A DNA stretch of 32,000 bases from Lachnospiraceae bacterium (GTDB taxonomy: Bacteria > Bacillota > Clostridia > Lachnospirales > Lachnospiraceae): positions 1 through 32,000 of the forward strand of contig JAKSRW010000014.1 in assembly GCA_024403355.1 (NCBI GenBank). The letters are read 5' to 3'. Made by a program: the position numbers and the translations under genes. Each line of letters opens with the position of its first letter. The first letter of the stretch is position 1. Shown here piece after piece: positions 4,927-28,897 of this stretch. Under the pieces are notes generated by a model. That model made no database searches, had not been told where the DNA came from, and saw only the letters and a list, made by a program, of their open reading frames with translations.

Positions 4927-5817
4927 TTGGTTAGGCAACGAAAAACCTTACAGGAATTAACAATTAAAGACAATTTTATGTTTGCGGCGGTAATGCTGGA
5001 GCCGGACAATGCGAAGGGATTACTGGAGCTGGTGCTTGGCATCGAAGTGGACTATGTTGAGATATCCCAGGAGAAAAGCATAGTGTATAACCCTGAGTAC
5101 AGGGGCGTGCGCCTGGATGTTTATATTAAGGATAACAAAGGAACTCACTTCAATGTGGAGATGCAGGCGGTATCACAGCCGCTGGTAAAGCGGGAAAGGT
5201 ATTATCACAGTCAGATGGACATGGAGCTTCTGGTAAGAGGCACCGATTATGAGAATCTGCCGGATGGCTATGTGATATTCATATGTGATTTTGACCCTCT
5301 GAGCATGGGTAAGTATCGGTATAGTATCAGAAAAAGGGTTGATGAAAATCTGGATTATAATTATCCGGATGGAAGTTTTACCATATTTTTGAGTACTGTC
5401 GGAACCAATGAAAATGAGGTGCCGAAGGCACTGGTTAAATTTCTAAAATTTGTAGCTGCAAGACCTGAGTCATCTAATGATGATTTTGACGATAAATATG
5501 TAAAGCAGCTGCAGTATTCTGTAGAGAAAATCAAGACAAGTCGCGATATGGAGGGCCGTTTTATGTTGTTTGAAGAAATGATGAAAAATGAATATAAGGC
5601 AGGCCATGAGGATGGCAAAGCAGAAGGAAAACTCGAGGGAAAACTCGAAGATATTCTCCAGCTTCTGAATGCCAGATTCACTGTACCCGACACACTTCCG
5701 GAGAGAATCAGTAGGATTACTGATGAAAATGTTTTATCAAAGCTTCATATAGATGCTGCTGTTTCAGCATCGATTGAGGATTTTGAGCGTGAGCTTGATA
5801 AACATCTCTCTTTTTAA
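4927..5817 (+). CDS. Rpn family recombination-promoting nuclease / putative transposase (PD-(D/E)XK, YhgA-like)
   Basis: TTG start 9 nt after AAGGAGGA. The N-terminus LTIKDNFMFAAVM plus the RLDVYIKDNKGTHFNVEMQ core is characteristic of the PD-(D/E)XK transposase-like family. Confidence 0.8.
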   Translation: MVRQRKTLQELTIKDNFMFAAVMLEPDNAKGLLELVLGIEVDYVEISQEKSIVYNPEYRGVRLDVYIKDNKGTHFNVEMQAVSQPLVKRERYYHSQMDMELLVRGTDYENLPDGYVIFICDFDPLSMGKYRYSIRKRVDENLDYNYPDGSFTIFLSTVGTNENEVPKALVKFLKFVAARPESSNDDFDDKYVKQLQYSVEKIKTSRDMEGRFMLFEEMMKNEYKAGHEDGKAEGKLEGKLEDILQLLNARFTVPDTLPERISRITDENVLSKLHIDAAVSASIEDFERELDKHLSF

Positions 5818-17362: not shown

Positions 17363-17630
17363 AGCGAAAGGCTGTGAAGAGAAGAGTAAATTATTCCGAA
17401 GGCTTACAGAGAATCCGGTAGTGTGCTGAGAACGGAGGCGGGAAGATAATTGAAGATGGTCTTGGAGCCGCAGGGTCGAAGCTTTTAGATTCTGACGGGT
17501 GCACCCGTTACAGTGCCGACTGTTGATGGACAGTTACAGAGGTTCGTATCGTGAGGTGCGGATGAATTAAAGTGGTAACACGTGAGTATTATGCTCTCGT
17601 CTTTAATTAAAGACGGGAGCTTATTTTTTC
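17363..17630 (+). promoter_or_regulatory. T-box riboswitch leader, probable Met (AUG) specifier
   Basis: Stem I elements tgaagagaagagta and gtgctgagaa. Candidate specifier gaagATGg at 17455-17457. T-box sequence aattaaagtggtaacacg at about 17565-17582. Terminator gctctcgtcttt/aaagacgggagc (17593-17620) followed by ttatttttt. It lies immediately upstream of metG. Confidence 0.85.
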
Positions 17631-17749
17631 GGATTTTTTCCGGGGCCGGCTATGAATCCATCACATACCGGGAAGTGGGCCGCATTAGCGGTGACGACCG
17701 AGGTTTTTATACAAAGACTTCGGATTGCAGCAAAGAAAGGAATGATTTT

Positions 17750-19819
17750 ATGAACAAGAAACCTTATTACATGACTACTGCGATTGCCTATGCATCAGGC
17801 AAGCCGCACATCGGCAATACCTACGAGATTATCCTCGCAGACAGTATTGCACGTTTCAAGAAGCTTCAGGGCTTCGATGTACGTTTTCAGACAGGTACCG
17901 ACGAGCACGGTATCAAGGTTGAGGAGAAGGCAGCAATCGCAGGCCAGACACCCAAGCAGTTTGTAGACGAGGTAGCAGGCGAAATCAAAAGAGTTTTTGA
18001 CTTAGTAGGTGCAAAGTATGACCGCTTCATCCGTACAACAGATGAGGATCATGAGAAGCAGACACAGAAGATTTTCAGAAAGCTCTATGAAAAGGGCGAT
18101 ATTTACAAGAATGAGTACGAGGGAATGTACTGTAAGCCCTGTGAGTCATTCTTCACGGCCAGCCAGCTTGTGGACGGCAAGTGCCCCGACTGCGGACGTC
18201 CCTGTACACCCGCAAAGGAGGAGGCATACTTCTTCAAAATGAGCAAATATGCCGACAGACTTATCGAGCATATCAATACACACCCCGAGTTCATTCAGCC
18301 CGAATCACGTAAAAACGAGATGCTGAAGAACTTCCTCCTTCCCGGTCTTAAGGACCTTTGCGTATCACGTACGACCGTTAAGTGGGGTGTGCCCGTAGAT
18401 TTCGATCCCAAGCACACAATCTATGTATGGATTGATGCTCTCAGCAACTACATCACCGGTCTTGGCTATGATGTAGACGGCAATAATGATGAATTATTCA
18501 ATAAATACTGGCCCTGTGACCTTCACCTTATCGGTAAGGACATCTTAAGATTCCACACTATTTACTGGCCTATCCTTCTTATGGCACTTGATGTTCCGCT
18601 TCCTAAGCAGGTATTCGGACATCCCTGGCTGCTGCGCGGCGGTGACAAGATGAGTAAGTCAAAGGGTAACGTAATCTATGCGGATGATGTTGCGGGACTT
18701 TTCGGTGTCGATGCGGTTCGTTACTTCGTACTTCATGAGATGCCCTTCGAAAATGACGGCGTAATCACCTGGGAGCTTCTTGTTGAGCGTCTTAATTCAG
18801 ACCTCGCAAATGTTCTCGGAAACCTTGTAAACCGTACGGTTTCAATGAGCAACAAGTATTTCGGCGGCGTTGTAAACAATGCGGGTGCAGCTGAGCCTGT
18901 TGACGAGGAGCTTATCGCACTTGCAAAGGCCACCCGTGCAATCGTTGTGGCAAAGATGGACGAGCTTCGTGTAGCGGACGCACTTACCGAGATTTTCAAT
19001 CTTTTCAAGCGCTGCAACAAGTATATCGATGAGACAGCACCCTGGGCTCTTGCAAAGGATGAGGCAAAGAAGGAGCGTCTTGAGACAGTTCTTTACAACC
19101 TTATCGAGAGCATTACAATCGGCGCAAGCCTTTTAGCCCCCTTCCTTCCCGAGACCGCAGAGAAGATTTTTGCACAGCTTAATACTTCTGCACGCGAGCT
19201 TGAGGAGCTTGGTGATTTCGGAAAATATCCTTCAGGCAATAAGGTAACGGAGAAGCCTGAAATCCTTTTCGCAAGACTTGACCTCAAGGAGGTTATGGAA
19301 AAGGTAGACGTTATCGCTCAGAAGCAGATTGAGGAATTTAAGGCTGAGCAGGCAAAGATTGATGCCTACAATAAGGCACACGGCATTTTAACAGGTGAGG
19401 AAAAGAAGGAGGAGGCAAAGGCTGAGGCTGAAAAGGCTGCGGACGGCTATGTTGCCGGCGACGGCTTCCCTGAGCTTCATGTTCCCACAAAGGCTGAGAT
19501 TACATATGATGATTTTGCAAAGCTTGAGTTCAGAGTCGGTGAAATCATTAAGTGTGAGGAGGTTAAGAAGTCAAAGAAGCTTCTCTGCTCACAGGTTAAG
19601 ATAGGTGCCGATGTTAAGCAGATTGTGTCAGGTATCAAGGCACATTACACACCTGAGCAGATGGTCGGCAAGAAGGTAATGGTAGTGGTAAACCTTAAGC
19701 CCGCCACACTTGCGGGACTTAGTTCAGAGGGTATGATTCTCTGTGCCGAGGATGAAAACGGCGAGCTCGCACTTATGGTTCCCGAGAAGCCCTTTAGTGC
19801 AGGAAGCGAAATCTGCTGA
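17750..19819 (+). CDS. metG: Methionine--tRNA ligase with a C-terminal tRNA-binding (Trbp111/EMAP-like) domain
   Basis: HIGN and KMSKS motifs and a CPDCG zinc knuckle. The start at ATG 17750 (MNKKPYY) follows gaaagga. The upstream part of the ORF-track frame overlaps the T-box leader and is not coding. Confidence 0.95.
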   Translation: MNKKPYYMTTAIAYASGKPHIGNTYEIILADSIARFKKLQGFDVRFQTGTDEHGIKVEEKAAIAGQTPKQFVDEVAGEIKRVFDLVGAKYDRFIRTTDEDHEKQTQKIFRKLYEKGDIYKNEYEGMYCKPCESFFTASQLVDGKCPDCGRPCTPAKEEAYFFKMSKYADRLIEHINTHPEFIQPESRKNEMLKNFLLPGLKDLCVSRTTVKWGVPVDFDPKHTIYVWIDALSNYITGLGYDVDGNNDELFNKYWPCDLHLIGKDILRFHTIYWPILLMALDVPLPKQVFGHPWLLRGGDKMSKSKGNVIYADDVAGLFGVDAVRYFVLHEMPFENDGVITWELLVERLNSDLANVLGNLVNRTVSMSNKYFGGVVNNAGAAEPVDEELIALAKATRAIVVAKMDELRVADALTEIFNLFKRCNKYIDETAPWALAKDEAKKERLETVLYNLIESITIGASLLAPFLPETAEKIFAQLNTSARELEELGDFGKYPSGNKVTEKPEILFARLDLKEVMEKVDVIAQKQIEEFKAEQAKIDAYNKAHGILTGEEKKEEAKAEAEKAADGYVAGDGFPELHVPTKAEITYDDFAKLEFRVGEIIKCEEVKKSKKLLCSQVKIGADVKQIVSGIKAHYTPEQMVGKKVMVVVNLKPATLAGLSSEGMILCAEDENGELALMVPEKPFSAGSEIC

Positions 19820-22528: not shown

Positions 22529-22654
22529 GTAATTTTCATTAATTTAGTACTCGGAAGCCGTATAAGCCGGCAAAGCCTGCGCTCGCAGACTTATTCGGGT
22601 GAAGTTAATAAATGTGGAAACTTGGTTCTAAGAGTTGTATTTTTGGAGAAATCT

Positions 22655-25135
22655 ATGGAGCAGGAAATTGTAAAATATGATGCTTTCATCAGCTACAGAC
22701 ATTCGGAGCTCGACAGATATGTGGCAATGACCATACAAAAGAGGCTTGAGGGCTTCAGGCTTCCAAAGAACTTTTCAAAGAAACGGGAGGGTGGCAGAAA
22801 TGTCATCTCCCGTATTTTTCGTGACCAGGATGAGCTGTCGCTGGCGGATAATCTGGCTGAGCCTCTTGCTCTGGCGCTTGAAAATTCCGATTTCCTGATT
22901 GTAATAAGCACACCGAGATATCCGCAGTCAGACTGGTGTCTGCAGGAGATTGAGAATTTCCTGAAAAATCACGACATGGACCATGTTCTTGTGGTACTGG
23001 CTGAGGGTGAGCCTGATGAGTCCTTCCCTGAAATTCTGACCTATCGTGACGTCGAAATAACCGATGATAACGGAAATGTCAGAATCGAGCGTAAAAGCAT
23101 GGAGCCGCTTGCGGCAGATGTGAGGGGCGCGGACAAACGTGAGATTAATAAAAAGATGGACGATGCCGTTTTGAGAATTGCGGCGGCCATGTTCGGTGTT
23201 TCCTTTGACAGTCTCAAGCAGCGCCACCGTGAGCAGCGAATGAGGCGAATGATTGCCTTTTTTGGCAGTGTGGCGGCGGTATTACTCATTTTTTCAATCG
23301 TCTGTTTTGCCCTTCTTACAAAAATCAATGACCAGAAAAGCATTATTTCCGAGCAGTATCGTGACATTCAGCTGAGATATGCCAATTCGATGGTAAATGC
23401 CTCGCAGCAGCTTATGTCAGCGGGGCGAAGGAAGGATGCGGTATATCTGGTAAATAAGGTCCTGCCGGAGAATCCCGTGGATGAGACCATTCCCTACAGT
23501 GCTGAGGCAGAGCGTGCTCTGGCGTCGGCTCTGGAGCTTTATGATCGCAGGAACGGTTTTTCGGTAAAGGGAAGCGTAGATGCCGAATCAGGTGTATCTG
23601 AGCTGACAGCTTCGGCTTCCGGCCGATATTTAGCATTTGCTTCGCAGGACGGAAATATTGTCATTTACGATATGATAGCGGAAAAAGAGGTCGGCAGAAC
23701 CGGGCTTTCCGGCAGCTATACCCAGCTGATTTATCTGAGCTTCATGGGGGAAGACAAGCTGTTTTTCTTTGAAAACGGCGAGGTTCACCGCTATGATATT
23801 TTAAGCGGCAGGGACGAACTGCTCTATCGTGGGGAGAACTGCTCTGTATATCTGTCAGAGGAGGGTAAGGTCTTTGCTGTATGGGAAGATAATATTTTAC
23901 GTATCTTTGATCTAAATAATAAAGAAATCTTCTCAGGGGATTTTATGGAGCAGCTGGCCGAATATGCGGGCAGGGAGCTTGAAATTGCGGCTGCATCCTG
24001 CTCACATTCCGGAAAGACGCTTACTCTTGCACTTTCACCCTACGGCGGCGGGGCAAGCGTGCTGATTTCTGTGGATTTAATAAATTCCGAAGAAGTATTT
24101 TTTGACATATACACGATAAATGCAAATGTCTGTATCGCCAATAGCGATGATATGATATACTTTGTCGTTTACAACGGATATACGCCGGACACCATGTTTG
24201 CAAATGTATACGGTATCAGCTTTGCAACAGGCCAGCCCCTTTGGGCATCATCCGTTTACAATGATGTATTCACAAGGATTGACTACATTGAGGATGCCGG
24301 CAGGGAATACGTGGTCACGGCCGGTGACAAGCGTGTGTCCCTGTATACTGCCGACGACGGCCAGCGACTGTGCGATGAACTGACTTCAGAGCTGATTATC
24401 TCAATGAACAGAACGCAGGCAGGTGACGCTGTTATGTTTTCGTTAAAGAACGGCGGTGTTTTAAAGCTTGACGCGAGTGCAGTGATTGTTGATTATTCGC
24501 TGAATTACTTTAATTACTCTATGTCGAATGTGCTGGACTATTGCAGGGTTTATGACAATTGCGTTGTGGCGCATATTCTCTATTCGGATTATGTCTACTA
24601 TATGACCCGCTATGATACGCCCGGCTATAAGCTTCTTCCGGATATGTCGGACAACAGCCACAGTTATCCTTACAGGGACAATTCAGAACTGATTAAGGAG
24701 CTTGGAATAGACGGTTCAAATATCAGCGCTTCCCTGGAATCCGAGGACGGAAAGCTTTTTATAACAGAGCTTTCAAACGGAGAATTATCCGTATACTCAA
24801 TCGAAGGTAAAAGGCTTCTGAACACGATTTACGGAAGCTATTCGCTTATGAGAAGGCTGATTTACTGCAGTGAAATCGACAAATATTTATTGATTAAGTC
24901 AAAAAGCAGCCTGCTTTTGAATTCCGACGGTGAAGTAGTTGCTGAGCTGCAGGATGTATATGATTACTGCGTGAACGGCGTACCCGGCTTTGTAATGAAG
25001 GAGGCTCAGACCGGCGAGGAGAGCAGCTTCTACTTTGCACCCTATGTGACCTACGAGCAGCTGATAGCCACTGCAAAAAGCTATCTGGGCGACTACGAGC
25101 CCTCACAGAAGATTAGAAAACGCTACGGAATATAA
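22655..25135 (+). CDS. TIR domain protein with a single TM helix and a large C-terminal WD40-like beta-propeller region
   Basis: Start ATG 22655 lies after GGAGA. TIR box 1 is KYDAFISY. The SDWCLQEIENF helix carries the conserved Glu (codon 22946-22948). A KQRHREQRMRR stretch precedes the TM helix MIAFFGSVAAVLLIFSIVCFALL (about 23249-23320). Repeated SxDGxxLAxxxxDGxIxIYD-type blades follow. Confidence 0.8.
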   Translation: MEQEIVKYDAFISYRHSELDRYVAMTIQKRLEGFRLPKNFSKKREGGRNVISRIFRDQDELSLADNLAEPLALALENSDFLIVISTPRYPQSDWCLQEIENFLKNHDMDHVLVVLAEGEPDESFPEILTYRDVEITDDNGNVRIERKSMEPLAADVRGADKREINKKMDDAVLRIAAAMFGVSFDSLKQRHREQRMRRMIAFFGSVAAVLLIFSIVCFALLTKINDQKSIISEQYRDIQLRYANSMVNASQQLMSAGRRKDAVYLVNKVLPENPVDETIPYSAEAERALASALELYDRRNGFSVKGSVDAESGVSELTASASGRYLAFASQDGNIVIYDMIAEKEVGRTGLSGSYTQLIYLSFMGEDKLFFFENGEVHRYDILSGRDELLYRGENCSVYLSEEGKVFAVWEDNILRIFDLNNKEIFSGDFMEQLAEYAGRELEIAAASCSHSGKTLTLALSPYGGGASVLISVDLINSEEVFFDIYTINANVCIANSDDMIYFVVYNGYTPDTMFANVYGISFATGQPLWASSVYNDVFTRIDYIEDAGREYVVTAGDKRVSLYTADDGQRLCDELTSELIISMNRTQAGDAVMFSLKNGGVLKLDASAVIVDYSLNYFNYSMSNVLDYCRVYDNCVVAHILYSDYVYYMTRYDTPGYKLLPDMSDNSHSYPYRDNSELIKELGIDGSNISASLESEDGKLFITELSNGELSVYSIEGKRLLNTIYGSYSLMRRLIYCSEIDKYLLIKSKSSLLLNSDGEVVAELQDVYDYCVNGVPGFVMKEAQTGEESSFYFAPYVTYEQLIATAKSYLGDYEPSQKIRKRYGI

Positions 25136-25699: not shown

Positions 25700-26185
25700 T
25701 CAGGCCTCTGCATTGTCAATGACAGCCTGAAGTCTGTCGAATCTGCCGCGGTAGATGCAGGTCAGAAGCTCATTCATGGCACGAAGGCCGTATAAAAGCT
25801 GCTCCTTTGTAATAAGGCCCTTCTCATAGGCCTCTGCGGCCTCGTCACTGTCCAGCACCTTAATTGCACCGTTAGGATATACCACGACATCAAAAAGCAG
25901 ATCCTCGTAGGTCATGGAATTCTCGGCCTCGTTCTTAACCACATCTATAATGTCACAGTACCAGTATTTTACTTTATTCTCACAGTCAAGAATCTTTGAA
26001 ACCTTCCAGCCCTTATCAAAGAAAAATGCAGAGATACCGCCGACAAAATCCTGACGCGGTTTGAGTGTCTTCCATTTTGTAATGAGCAGATCATCCTCAA
26101 ATTTTAATATTGTATCATTTATCAGGGGAGTAAACTCCTCGGGAATATAACGTCGTCTGTAGAGCTTTAAATCTTCTATTTTCAT
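25700..26185 (-). CDS. DUF402 family protein (Ntdp/FomD-like nucleoside di/triphosphatase fold)
   Basis: Pattern YRRRYIPEE...KWYCDIIDV...DLLFDVVVYPNG, typical of DUF402. Confidence 0.65.
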   Translation of the reverse strand: MKIEDLKLYRRRYIPEEFTPLINDTILKFEDDLLITKWKTLKPRQDFVGGISAFFFDKGWKVSKILDCENKVKYWYCDIIDVVKNEAENSMTYEDLLFDVVVYPNGAIKVLDSDEAAEAYEKGLITKEQLLYGLRAMNELLTCIYRGRFDRLQAVIDNAEA

Positions 26186-26256
26186 ACTGCCATGCCCGCC
26201 CGCATTCGGAATGCGTCCTTTCCGATATACCTATATCTCATAAAAATATTACAACC

Positions 26257-26285
26257 ATTATACGACAGCGAAACCTCACTTTCAA
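26257..26285 (-). promoter_or_regulatory. Consensus-like sigma-70 promoter for the DUF402 gene
   Basis: On the minus strand: TTGAAA, 17-nt spacer, TATAAT. Confidence 0.65.
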
Positions 26286-26299
26286 CCCCCAAAACACTT

Positions 26300-26816
26300 C
26301 CCGGCCAAAATCTGTTACAGTGGGCGTCGCCGGGATGTGTTTTTACTTTTTATTTCCGGCTGCCCGCTGCAGTGTTCAATTTCCGACTGTAATGATATTT
26401 CCTTCGAGAACCGGTCTCGCCTTTTCATTTTCTAACTGCCGCAGCCTCGCGTATCTATGCTCTACGCCGCCAGTCGGACATCCCTGTCCTCCCGTGCGGC
26501 GCGCCGTCCGTCCATGGACGGCGTGACGAGCATAGGTCTTTATTGCAAGACTGCGGCAGCAAGAAAATGTAGCAAGGCTCGAAGGCTCTCGAAGAAAACA
26601 CACATTACAGTCCGGAAAGGAACGCAGCCGGGCGTAAGTAAATAAGCAGAAGCTCACATCCCGGTTTTGTCGATGAGAACAGATTTTGGCTCCTAGCCAC
26701 ACCCAAACCGTGTTAGCTATTTGGGGGATTTACTTGAAGCGTGTGATATGTGGCTGTTAGTAAACCGCAGGTCGAAAAGAAATCTGACGGGAACATTGCA
26801 GCGGGCAGCCGGAAAC
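26300..26816. ncRNA. Candidate large structured non-coding element (unclassified; the alternative is a MITE-like element)
   Basis: There is no protein-like ORF and the core is GC-rich. Nested long-range helices include a 25-bp closing helix (26353-26377/26791-26815), and crossing 13-bp and 10-bp pairings are also present. See the findings for all coordinates. The strand is unresolved. Confidence 0.45.
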
Positions 26817-26858
26817 TAAAAAAGTCGCATCATGGTGAAGCACGATGCGACTGATTTT
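26817..26858. terminator. Bidirectional intrinsic terminator (ends the minus-strand LRR gene; would also end a plus-strand RNA)
   Basis: Stem agtcgcatc/gatgcgact (26823-26831/26844-26852) flanked by an A6 tract on the left and TGATTTT on the right. Confidence 0.75.
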
Positions 26859-26875
26859 GGACTGGGGTGTCCTAA

Positions 26876-28897
26876 TTATTTAACTTTTACAGCTATCTTG
26901 AAGGTCTTTGTAGTCTTCTTCTTGCCGTTGGTGATAGTAGCCTTAACATTTACTGTACAGGTGCCCTTCTTTACACCGGTAATCTTGCCGGTAGTAGAGC
27001 TAACCTTTGCTATTTCCTTGTTGGAAGAGCTGTACTTGAGCACAACCTCAGTATTACTGTTTCCGAGCTTCTTAACAGATGTAAGACCGAAAGGAAGAAT
27101 AATATTGGGCTGAGCCTTCTTCTTAGCAGAAACGGTAACTACATCCTGAACATAAATCTGATTAAGGATTTCATCGTTTGAATCGATTAACTCATAATTC
27201 TGACGGTAGTATGCGTAATCAGGATCGAATTCGGGATCAAACCACTGGGGTAATGTGACATTATTGTAGATGTCAATAATCTCTGCCATGGGTGAATCAG
27301 CATATACACGCATGATATCGATGTTATAGTAGCCAAGTGTTACGAAGTTCTTGGGGAATGTAACTGTAAGTAACATCTCCTTTTCTTCTCCGTCGTAATA
27401 GTTGTTTGCAAGTGCGTAATCAGCTGCTGAAAGGCAATCCTTGTGAATCTTTACATTGCTCAGCTTCTTGGGAGCTACATAAAGATATGAATAATCCTTT
27501 GTATATAAGCAGTTGTTATAAGAAGCGAAGAAGCTGTTATCAGGTGATACTACGATTTTCTCAAGATTATCAGAAGTACGTAAATAGATGTTATCTGTAT
27601 AGGTTAATGATGCGGGTAAGGTAATCTTCTTTGCCGCACTACCGGATAAGTAGCTGCACATATATGTTACGCCCTCGGGAACGTTGATTTCCTTAAGCTT
27701 TGTATCTGTGAAAGCAAATGATTCAATGCCTACAATATTGGGATCAAACTTGATAGATGTCTTGTTCTTGGGAACATAGTAGAGGATTGACTTGTACATA
27801 GGGCTGTTGTTGTCGTAAGAGTAGTCTAAATATGTACCGTAAAGACAATCATCGTAGATACTGAAGGTGGGGTTCTTGTCGCTTACCTTAACAGAACCTG
27901 TATAGCCACAGAAAGCCTCAGGACTGATGAATGCTACATTCTCAGGGATTGTGATGCTCTTAATGGAAGACTCGTCAAATGCATATGCACTGATGGTAAC
28001 GAGGTTCTTGGGAAGGTTTACGTTCTTAAGTGAATACATACCTGCGAAGCTGGCTTCGCCAATCTTCTCAACGCTGTCGGGAAGGTTGATTGTTGTAACA
28101 TAGCAGCTGCCTGAAATACCAAGGTAGCTTGTCTCTATAGTACCGGGTCTTACATTGATAACCTTCTTGCTGGGATCAAGAGAGAAGAGGATATCTCCGT
28201 CGTAGATACAGTCATTTTCGATATCGAAACGGTCTGAATCATCAGTAAGTGCTGAATAAGCTACATCTCTGATTGAGAAGTATGCAAGATTCTTGGGAAG
28301 ATTGATTTTCTTTGCAGCGGGAAGGTCGTAGAGATAAAGATACTCTGTTTTTGCACCTACGTTTACTGTTTCAATCTTATCGCAGTAAGAAATCTCTACT
28401 GTTTCGCCTCTGTTGGGAAGGTCGACTGACTTAATCTGAGGACATGAACTAACCGTAATATTTGAGCATTCGGTTACTCCGTTCTTCTCAAAGGTTACGT
28501 TCTTGAGTGATGACAGTGCATAAAGAGAAACTGACTGTGCATTCTTGGGAATTGTTAAGCTTTCGATTCCTTCATCATAGTTCATATAAATGTAGTCTGC
28601 AGATGCAGGAATCTTAACGCTCTTAAGGCTGGGGCAGTTGTAAATGTAGACACTGTTGTAGCCTTCTGCGATTGAAAGCTCTTCGATGGTTGAGTTCTCT
28701 GAGATATAGAGAGAAGCAGCATCGGTCATGGCAGGAATATTAACCTTTTTGTCTGAACCGACATAGTACACGGTACCCCATGAAACTTCAAAATCACTTG
28801 CTGCTGCATTAGCCTCTACACCGGGCATTGCAAACATCTGGATTGCAATGGCAAGGAAAGCAATGAAGGCAACAAATTTCTTCATAGATCTTTTCAT
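26876..28897 (-). CDS. BspA-type leucine-rich-repeat surface protein with a C-terminal Big_2-like domain
   Basis: RBS aaaggagaaa. Signal peptide MKKFVAFIAFLAIAIQMFAMPGVEANA. Many LRR units of about 22 aa (IPxxVxxIxxxAFxxCxxLxxV). The C-terminus SSSNKEIAKVSSTTGKITGVKKGTCTVNVKA is Big_2-like. Confidence 0.8.
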   Translation of the reverse strand: MKRSMKKFVAFIAFLAIAIQMFAMPGVEANAAASDFEVSWGTVYYVGSDKKVNIPAMTDAASLYISENSTIEELSIAEGYNSVYIYNCPSLKSVKIPASADYIYMNYDEGIESLTIPKNAQSVSLYALSSLKNVTFEKNGVTECSNITVSSCPQIKSVDLPNRGETVEISYCDKIETVNVGAKTEYLYLYDLPAAKKINLPKNLAYFSIRDVAYSALTDDSDRFDIENDCIYDGDILFSLDPSKKVINVRPGTIETSYLGISGSCYVTTINLPDSVEKIGEASFAGMYSLKNVNLPKNLVTISAYAFDESSIKSITIPENVAFISPEAFCGYTGSVKVSDKNPTFSIYDDCLYGTYLDYSYDNNSPMYKSILYYVPKNKTSIKFDPNIVGIESFAFTDTKLKEINVPEGVTYMCSYLSGSAAKKITLPASLTYTDNIYLRTSDNLEKIVVSPDNSFFASYNNCLYTKDYSYLYVAPKKLSNVKIHKDCLSAADYALANNYYDGEEKEMLLTVTFPKNFVTLGYYNIDIMRVYADSPMAEIIDIYNNVTLPQWFDPEFDPDYAYYRQNYELIDSNDEILNQIYVQDVVTVSAKKKAQPNIILPFGLTSVKKLGNSNTEVVLKYSSSNKEIAKVSSTTGKITGVKKGTCTVNVKATITNGKKKTTKTFKIAVKVK

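Follow-up and report, generated by a model that had tools for sequence, protein, structure and literature searches.

The DNA considered here is a stretch of 32,000 nucleotides (the window) from a Lachnospiraceae bacterium (contig JAKSRW010000014.1, positions 1 to 32,000 of the forward strand), and its subject is a palindromic non-coding element that lies in the gap between an LRR_5/Big_2 gene (the LRR gene) and a DUF402 gene. In an initial annotation, made from the letters alone, this element was taken for a novel plus-strand RNA of the ROOL, GOLLD, OLE and raiA class; the evidence described below points to a repeat resembling a miniature inverted-repeat transposable element (MITE), whose core is reminiscent of the TwoAYGGAY RNA motif.

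The locus and the inserted sequence

The genes and signals at the locus, all of which are oriented on the minus strand, are given below in minus-strand order.

26876-28897, minus strand: LRR_5/Big_2 gene, first in the order, with its stop at 26876
26823-26852, minus strand: terminator hairpin followed by T6, about 20 nt past the LRR stop codon, scored as a terminator
26291..26872, minus strand: the whole palindromic insertion, about 580 bp, between the LRR stop and the DUF402 promoter, its extremes paired in the minimum free energy (MFE) folds
26257-26285, minus strand: DUF402 promoter, TTGAAA-17-TATAAT, 11/12 positions in the promoter scan, downstream of the element
25700-26185, minus strand: DUF402 gene, last in the order, after the element and the promoter

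The GC content of the element is 0.52-0.57, as opposed to about 0.40-0.45 in its flanks. The open reading frames (ORFs) in the gap had been dismissed as nonsense, and this is borne out by a 108-aa ORF inside the element, for which Pfam holds no family and whose sole relative among 5.8 billion proteins, P0001, is encoded by another copy of the same DNA. When P0001 was in turn compared by phmmer with 1.8 billion representative proteins, no real homologue was found.

Syntenic loci were fetched through seven look-ups of DUF402 homologues (72-82% identity), with atpC, LRR, DUF402, (NUDIX), rpiB and sua5 as the genes whose synteny was used (n=10 loci). The gap between the LRR and DUF402 genes measures 690 nt in the window and 21-137 nt in 10 of the 10 syntenic loci:

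L027: gap of 137 nt
L028: gap of 29 nt
L029: gap of 42 nt
L039: gap of 21 nt
L040-L042: gap of 76 nt
L043-L045: gap of 94 nt

The extra sequence in the window is therefore a lineage-specific insertion. Since the -10 region of the DUF402 promoter, CTGTCGTATAAT, is conserved and recognisable in the relative L027, this insertion sits between the LRR stop codon and the DUF402 promoter; because the promoter lies downstream of the element, a reading of the latter as a DUF402 leader or riboswitch was rejected. The element is carried at this locus only by near-identical strains (L001 and L002, with about 97.8% identity to the window across 5-7 kb). Filled and empty sites are both seen, and the element has no coding capacity, as is the case for a MITE. 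At one of the empty loci (L028 731-5374), an LRR_5/Big_2 gene of 677 aa stands on either side of the DUF402 gene, which represents a local LRR duplication.

A foldback with inverted ends and a second copy

The initial annotation described a heavily paired element of about 520 nt (26300-26816) and listed 11 pairings, every one of which was confirmed by a base-by-base check, with the same arms recovered by an inverted-repeat search.

26353-26377/26791-26815: closing helix of 25 bp, with 24 Watson-Crick pairs and one G-T
26398-26412/26584-26598: helix with 13/15 positions paired
Helices of 8, 9, 8, 6, 7 and 6 bp: all perfect
26304-26316/26678-26690: first crossing pairing, 13/13
26330-26339/26655-26664: second crossing pairing, 10/10

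The heavy base pairing of the element is upheld by its fold strength, which goes far beyond that of shuffled sequence. For 26290-26870, the plus strand has an MFE of -263 kcal/mol (z -11.0) and the minus strand one of -281 kcal/mol (z -16.3), with 0/100 shuffles as stable in either case, and 8 perfect 13-mer inverted matches are observed where 300 dinucleotide shuffles gave 0. The structure is thus as real as had been claimed but its span is larger, as the palindrome reaches from about 26291 to 26872 and both MFE folds pair 26291-26314 with 26851-26872. One short helix (26464-26469/26519-26524) also exists as traced, but it competes with two tip hairpins (26466-26500 and 26502-26523) that are favoured by the MFE folds and by covariance models. 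The G-T of the closing helix, which had been noted as a wobble on the plus strand, says nothing on the strand, because the pair is G-C in strain L001.

The anatomy of the window copy, from left end to right end on the minus strand, can be set out as follows.

26791..26872, minus strand: left terminal repeat, about 82 nt, consisting of an outer segment (26851-26872), a hairpin and the 5' arm of the closing helix (26791-26815)
26818-26858, minus strand: terminator-like hairpin of the left terminal repeat
26618..26790, minus strand: D2, the "second domain" of the initial annotation, 173 bp, in the window lineage only
26706-26790: remainder of D2, not assigned to the left terminal repeat
26618-26705: part of D2 in which the left terminal repeat recurs, degenerate but in direct orientation
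26389..26610, minus strand: conserved core, a long interrupted hairpin (P1) with a three-way tip, 96.8% identical to the second copy (L003, below)
26291..26377, minus strand: right terminal repeat, with a decayed hairpin and the 3' arm of the closing helix (26353-26377)
26291-26305/26329-26343: local hairpin in the right terminal repeat

The two ends of the window copy (26791-26872 and 26291-26377) are inverted repeats of each other (64/79 matches, z 15). The inner copy of the left end, within D2, matches the outer left end at 54 of 69 positions (z 5.4); compared with the right end in reverse complement, it matches at 56 of 71 (z 7.2). D2 also contains the partners (26655-26664 and 26678-26690) of both of the crossing pairings that had been interpreted as pseudoknots. 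These pairings arise because a single right end is complementary to two left ends, an outer and an inner one, and since the closing helix uses the outer copy, any pairing with the inner copy necessarily crosses it. Judged from the repeats, the "pseudoknots" would be by-products of a duplication, with no tertiary RNA structure. In strain L001 (about 98% identical), block 26322-26357 is replaced by unrelated-looking sequence (L001 about 2375-2430, 36-45 nt) while its surroundings are 98-100% identical, and this replacement destroys the 10-bp crossing pairing, the partner strand being unchanged; it suggests gene conversion from another copy of the element. D2 was also considered as a remnant of a second TwoAYGGAY copy, which was rejected on finding only 9-13-nt matches (E about 1) to the TwoAYGGAY copies of Agathobacter rectalis.

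A second copy of the element (L003/P0001; MCQ2497017.1, locus tag MJ131_10565) was found through the spurious 108-aa ORF, in a Lachnospiraceae metagenome-assembled genome (MAG). This copy shares the 222-nt core (window 26389-26610) at 96.8% identity and lies in a different context, its left flank being unrelated to any window sequence, and it is without the 173-nt D2 and without the closing helix. The left ends of the two copies agree at 62/71 positions (z 13) and the right ends at 57/77 (z 9.5), terminator-like hairpins stand at both ends of L003 in inverted orientation, and L003 75-468 folds as one hairpin of about 390 nt (-232 kcal/mol, z -20). The proteins of the window are MCQ2496104-MCQ2496122, on a contig of 79.7 kb, with paralogues at MCQ2495665 (90-kb contig) and MCQ2495820 (83-kb contig), and P0001 is on a contig of 25.9 kb. 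Accessions increase from longer to shorter contigs and the locus-tag index is in line with a single block; by this arithmetic the two copies probably come from one MAG.

These data bear directly on the reading of the region as one novel ornate RNA, located on the plus strand over about 520 nt and built from two domains with pseudoknots and a closing helix of 25 bp. Such an RNA would be in keeping with the very strong predicted structure and with the listed pairings, all of which exist, and a hairpin followed by TGATTTT is indeed found at the plus-strand 3' side of the element. However, the hairpin at 26823-26852 has its T6 on the minus strand, where it serves as the terminator of the LRR gene, and it does not mark the end of a plus-strand transcript. 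The proposed RNA is not conserved at the locus in any relative (10 syntenic loci), the second copy is devoid of D2 and of the closing helix on which a two-domain structure depends, one pseudoknot helix is lost in a strain that is about 98% identical, the plus strand is the less stable of the two, and no family signal was obtained on it, the sole such signal being on the minus strand. Near-uninterrupted duplexes of at least 100 bp are unlike ROOL, GOLLD and OLE, which also counts against this reading. What the element has in common with ROOL, GOLLD, OLE, raiA and HEARO is no more than its size range and how strong its predicted structure is. It is a simple foldback with no multi-junction fold and is not conserved across relatives. 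The ornate-RNA reading is largely refuted and is considered most improbable; the structure is best read as the foldback of a palindromic repeat, not as a new multi-domain ornate RNA.

A closer comparison is provided by bacterial MITEs and palindromic intergenic repeats, such as the Correia elements of Neisseria and the enterobacterial ERIC elements. Like these, the element is non-coding, a few hundred bp long, bounded by terminal inverted repeats and able to form a hairpin if transcribed, and it lies between genes, is present or absent by lineage, and has truncated or duplicated ends. A MITE-like element of about 465 bp had been named as an alternative in the initial annotation, with a count of copies and a search for target-site duplications as its check. 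The insertion is real and its inverted ends are homologous between two copies, in favour of that alternative, but the element measures about 580 bp, and neither a target-site duplication nor, in the collections scanned, a further copy was found. No other copy is present elsewhere in the 32-kb window, BLASTN of the gap against phage and plasmid collections gave no match, and an exact 18-mer of the closing helix had no match in viral contigs. With only two copies known, no target-site duplication found and no parent element, such as an insertion sequence (IS), identified, the element is not established as a MITE in the full sense.

Resemblance of the core to TwoAYGGAY RNAs

The Infernal/Rfam scan that the initial annotation had recommended was carried out with cmscan on 26150-26900, both strands, at E<=10 (a 751-nt search). 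It returned Rfam TwoAYGGAY (RF01731) at 26420-26575, on the minus strand only and over the full model (1-168), with 37.4 bits and an E value of 3e-4, which is below the RF01731 gathering score of 43. ROOL, GOLLD, OLE, raiA, HEARO and 6S gave no covariance-model match at E<=10, the rest of the output being one chance microRNA match, and at gathering thresholds no TwoAYGGAY match was obtained in the whole window. It had been anticipated that a strong Rfam match would make the element a known one; a match does exist, but it is weak and below threshold. A further covariance model (R1), which was built here from 8 gut TwoAYGGAY sequences, gave weak matches to both copies, with 22.7 bits for the window (26414-26578, minus strand only) and, for L003, 23.2 bits on the sense strand as opposed to 7.7 bits on the antisense strand. 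The parts of the core that correspond to the family are as follows.

26378-26617: long interrupted P1 helix around the tip hairpins, a family feature that is present here
26455..26535, minus strand: three-way junction, closed by CUAUGCUC/GAGCAUAG (26528-26535/26455-26462), a perfect 8 bp
26502..26523, minus strand: tip hairpin 1, with an 8-bp stem and loop AUGGAC (26510-26515), which fits AYGGAY
26466..26500, minus strand: tip hairpin 2, with the inner hairpin GGACAGGGAUGUCC (26476-26489) and loop AGGGAU

GGA is present in both tip loops, and it is kept in L003, where loop 1 reads AAGGAC. The 3' junction motif GAGCAUAGA is common to the core and the gut TwoAYGGAY sequences; of the conserved junction of the family, the core shares this downstream motif only. 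Very long flanking arms are found in gut-metagenome members of the family, whose P1 has been described as "often very large" and which is multi-copy in Psychromonas (Weinberg et al., 2010, supplement, PMC2864571). The likeness comprises the host range (Clostridia/Lachnospiraceae of gut or rumen), an intergenic position co-oriented with the neighbouring genes, the very long P1, the two tip hairpins with GGA loops, of which loop 1 is AUGGAC, the shared GAGCAUAGA and a full-length match on one strand. The differences lie in the score (37.4 bits, as opposed to 152.8 for a bona fide A. rectalis copy with RF01731), in loop 2, in the inner junction helix, which is replaced by CUAUGCUC/GAGCAUAG in the window, and in the hairpin-containing terminal repeats of about 85 bp and the extra 173-bp segment. 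On this comparison, the core would be a divergent relative or variant of TwoAYGGAY and not a member of the family. A giant hairpin with a 31-bp perfect stem and an identical GGACAGGGAUGUCC hairpin at its tip was also seen in a Fibrobacteraceae MAG (L005 1401-1583); it was rejected as a relative, as it gave only 8 bits with R1 and is not demonstrably related.

True TwoAYGGAY copies could be examined in A. rectalis, where R1 finds four in 246 kb of NZ_CP143948.1 with scores of 168-187 bits.

L034: 32113-32288
L035: 25500-25675
L035: 30842-31016
L036: 48581-48756

Each of these is at the tip of a hairpin of about 290 nt, lies in an intergenic gap of 370-630 nt and is co-oriented with both neighbouring genes, and the window copy has the same architecture and orientation. 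Within a copy, the outer arms (35-43 bp) pair with perfect or near-perfect complementarity, yet between copies they are only 56-68% alike. That TwoAYGGAY arms are paired within a copy but dissimilar between copies is the most interesting loose end at the level of the family. NZ_CP143948.1 (L034-L038) is labelled a 252-kb plasmid, but it carries rpoB/rpoC, tuf, fusA, secY and the main ribosomal-protein operons and is probably a chromosome segment or chromid, not an ordinary plasmid.

The same observations could be accommodated by a strand-specific hairpin site in single-stranded DNA (ssDNA), recognised during replication or by an ssDNA recombinase or transposase in the manner of attC, of repetitive extragenic palindromes and their tyrosine transposases (REP/RAYT), or of IS200/IS605 ends. 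The orientation of the element matches that of the flanking genes in 5/5 cases (the window and the four A. rectalis copies), the arms of true members are perfectly paired yet copy-specific, the family is multi-copy in Psychromonas and A. rectalis, and DNA hairpins tolerate G-T pairs. However, no Y1 transposase, integrase or RAYT adjoins any copy examined, the Rpn/PD-(D/E)XK gene of the window is 21 kb off, and conserved GGA loops are a known RNA-protein motif (PMC4333381); an ssDNA site is considered a very unlikely explanation.

Strand asymmetry within the core favours a role as RNA, or at any rate one tied to a single strand. Folding of the core yields -146.5 kcal/mol for the minus strand and -116.2 kcal/mol for the plus strand, with 8 versus 3 G-U pairs, and the same G-U bias is seen in L003 (17 versus 9). 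Between the window and L003, all of the helix substitutions (5/5) are transitions that keep the minus-strand pairing (A-U to G-U, or G-U to A-U or G-C), whereas 2 of the 3 loop substitutions are transversions. This asymmetry is what has to be set against another alternative, namely a selfish or neutral DNA foldback of MITE type with no RNA function, whose likeness to TwoAYGGAY would consist of GC-rich, fork-tipped hairpins only. Such a foldback would be expected to be missing in relatives, as this insertion is, and to have terminal repeats conserved between its copies; the internal partial duplication and the replaced block of L001 are typical of repeat turnover; and the lack of a promoter, covariance scores that are no higher than those of the antisense strands of real members and symmetric G-U counts over the whole element are all consistent with it. 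On the other hand, each of the two copies gives orientation-specific covariance matches, and the minus-strand fold of the core is the more stable one by 30 kcal/mol. The 5/5 helix substitutions leave minus-strand pairing intact, neither loop has lost its GGA although loop 1 differs between the copies, and true members have the GAGCAUAGA junction motif as well. A foldback devoid of RNA function is regarded as rather unlikely, if worth serious consideration.

The tip hairpins invite comparison with CsrB and RsmY/Z, the small RNAs (sRNAs) that sequester CsrA/RsmA. As in these, GGA stands in hairpin loops and two sites are spaced for one dimer, and the loop stem ACAGGGAUGU in tip hairpin 2 equals ACARGGAUGU, the consensus obtained for CsrA by systematic evolution of ligands by exponential enrichment (SELEX). 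The element differs from them in having two predicted sites only, which are placed on a duplex of more than 100 bp, and in having no promoter and terminator that define an sRNA gene. To our knowledge, no CsrA-antagonising RNA has been established in Firmicutes. Binding of CsrA by TwoAYGGAY RNA has been proposed at the level of the family, which was put forward as a clostridial counterpart of the CsrA-sequestering sRNAs (PMC4333381), and in a 2025 preprint TwoAYGGAY is still called "relatively unexplored". A tandem 53-nt repeat with GGACAGGGAUGUCC in each unit was also seen after a terminator in a Gammaproteobacteria MAG (L008 7467-7539, L017 712-784), and it resembles an sRNA of the Csr/Rsm type that carries multiple GGA sites.

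Other features of the window lie apart from the element.

4927-5817, plus strand: Rpn / PD-(D/E)XK "transposase" family gene, 21 kb from the element, with no link to it shown; within the MAG, paralogues of this family number at least three (MCQ2495665, MCQ2495820, MCQ2496104)
17365-17607, plus strand: T-box leader (RF00230, 101.6 bits); a methionyl-tRNA synthetase ORF (17582-19819) follows it directly
22622-25135, plus strand: gene for a protein of 837 aa that combines an N-terminal TIR domain with beta-propeller/WD40-like repeats; the genes on its two sides are NUDIX and rpiB

The TIR protein gene is missing at the same site in the relatives L027 and L029 and gives weak PADLOC matches, and the NUDIX protein that adjoins it matches PADLOC PDC-S07 (E 7e-14); the TIR/beta-propeller gene is possibly a lineage-specific insertion of defence type.

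Weight of the evidence, proposed mechanism and significance

Taken together, the region is probably a MITE-like palindromic element of about 580 bp between the LRR stop and the DUF402 promoter, with a core that is a divergent relative of TwoAYGGAY. A number of points weigh against this interpretation. With regard to mobility, only two copies are known, and exact core 20-mer scans of genome and metagenome contig collections gave no further copy, the matches obtained (a planctomycete IS coding sequence, a Methylocaldum locus and others) all being unrelated. Two different GCA numbers are listed for the window and L003 copies, and their placement in the same genome is inferred. No partner transposase was found, and the core is more conserved than the ends (97% as opposed to about 75-87%), which is the reverse of what is usual for ends recognised by a transposase. 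A target-site duplication was not found either: the flanks of the window copy, TTAGG and TTTGG, are only similar, and the empty sites of relatives have diverged too far for the junction to be placed. As regards expression, neither strand of the element carries a promoter, by promoter scan or by inspection by eye, in agreement with the initial annotation, and the minus-strand core sits behind a good terminator.

With regard to the family, besides the score below the gathering level, loop 2 (AGGGAU) has a purine at position 2 and is no strict fit to AYGGAY, and the inner junction helix of the family (CAGcaa.../...uugCGUCA) is not formed, its pairs being non-canonical in the cmscan alignment. R1 also gives 29-41 bits to the antisense strands of true copies, from structure alone, so that the window score may partly reflect the mere fact of being a hairpin. 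The strand signal is subject to similar reservations. G-U counts over the whole element are symmetric (15 versus 16) and uninformative as a strand test; the substitution pattern comes from two sequences only, and arm-to-arm gene conversion could mimic compensatory change. The core shows zero differences between the window and L001, which is not significant, since 13% of 240-nt windows show none and the divergence is mosaic.

If the region is indeed a MITE-like element with a TwoAYGGAY-related core, a mechanism can be proposed in which terminal inverted repeats of about 85 bp, each of which would originally have had a terminator-like hairpin, flank a core of 222-240 nt. On the minus strand, this core is predicted to fold into a giant interrupted hairpin, the tip of which forms a three-way junction with two GGA loops, and the window copy would have gained a 173-bp segment, part of which is a second left end in degenerate form. 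The element may spread or recombine as DNA, while RNA of its minus strand could arise when transcription of the LRR gene reads through, or from a promoter that escaped recognition. In such an RNA, a single CsrA dimer would be offered two GGA sites of CsrA type by the tip hairpins, at a spacing of about 30 nt, leading to a decoy or regulatory role as proposed for TwoAYGGAY, and the long duplex would be a natural substrate of RNase III.

A broader and distinctly speculative idea, which we consider unlikely, is that TwoAYGGAY-type giant hairpins in general, this divergent variant included, are mobile palindromes by which CsrA-type GGA decoys, or modules processed by RNase III, are scattered among intergenic regions that Lachnospiraceae transcribe, with arms that are kept paired yet copy-specific by inverted duplication of the target or by arm-to-arm gene conversion. 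If true, such elements would be MITEs with a regulatory-RNA cargo.

TwoAYGGAY has remained an orphan motif from 2010 onwards, and a divergent copy that was missed by Rfam thresholds suggests that the family is broader and more repeat-like than catalogued. The copy described here forms part of a unit whose terminal repeats are clear, and it has a paralogue elsewhere in what is probably the same MAG, and copies of this kind provide a handle on the movement of these elements as DNA versus their action as RNA. For annotation, it follows that very large predicted structures in intergenic gaps of Lachnospiraceae can be foldback repeats and are not necessarily ornate RNAs.

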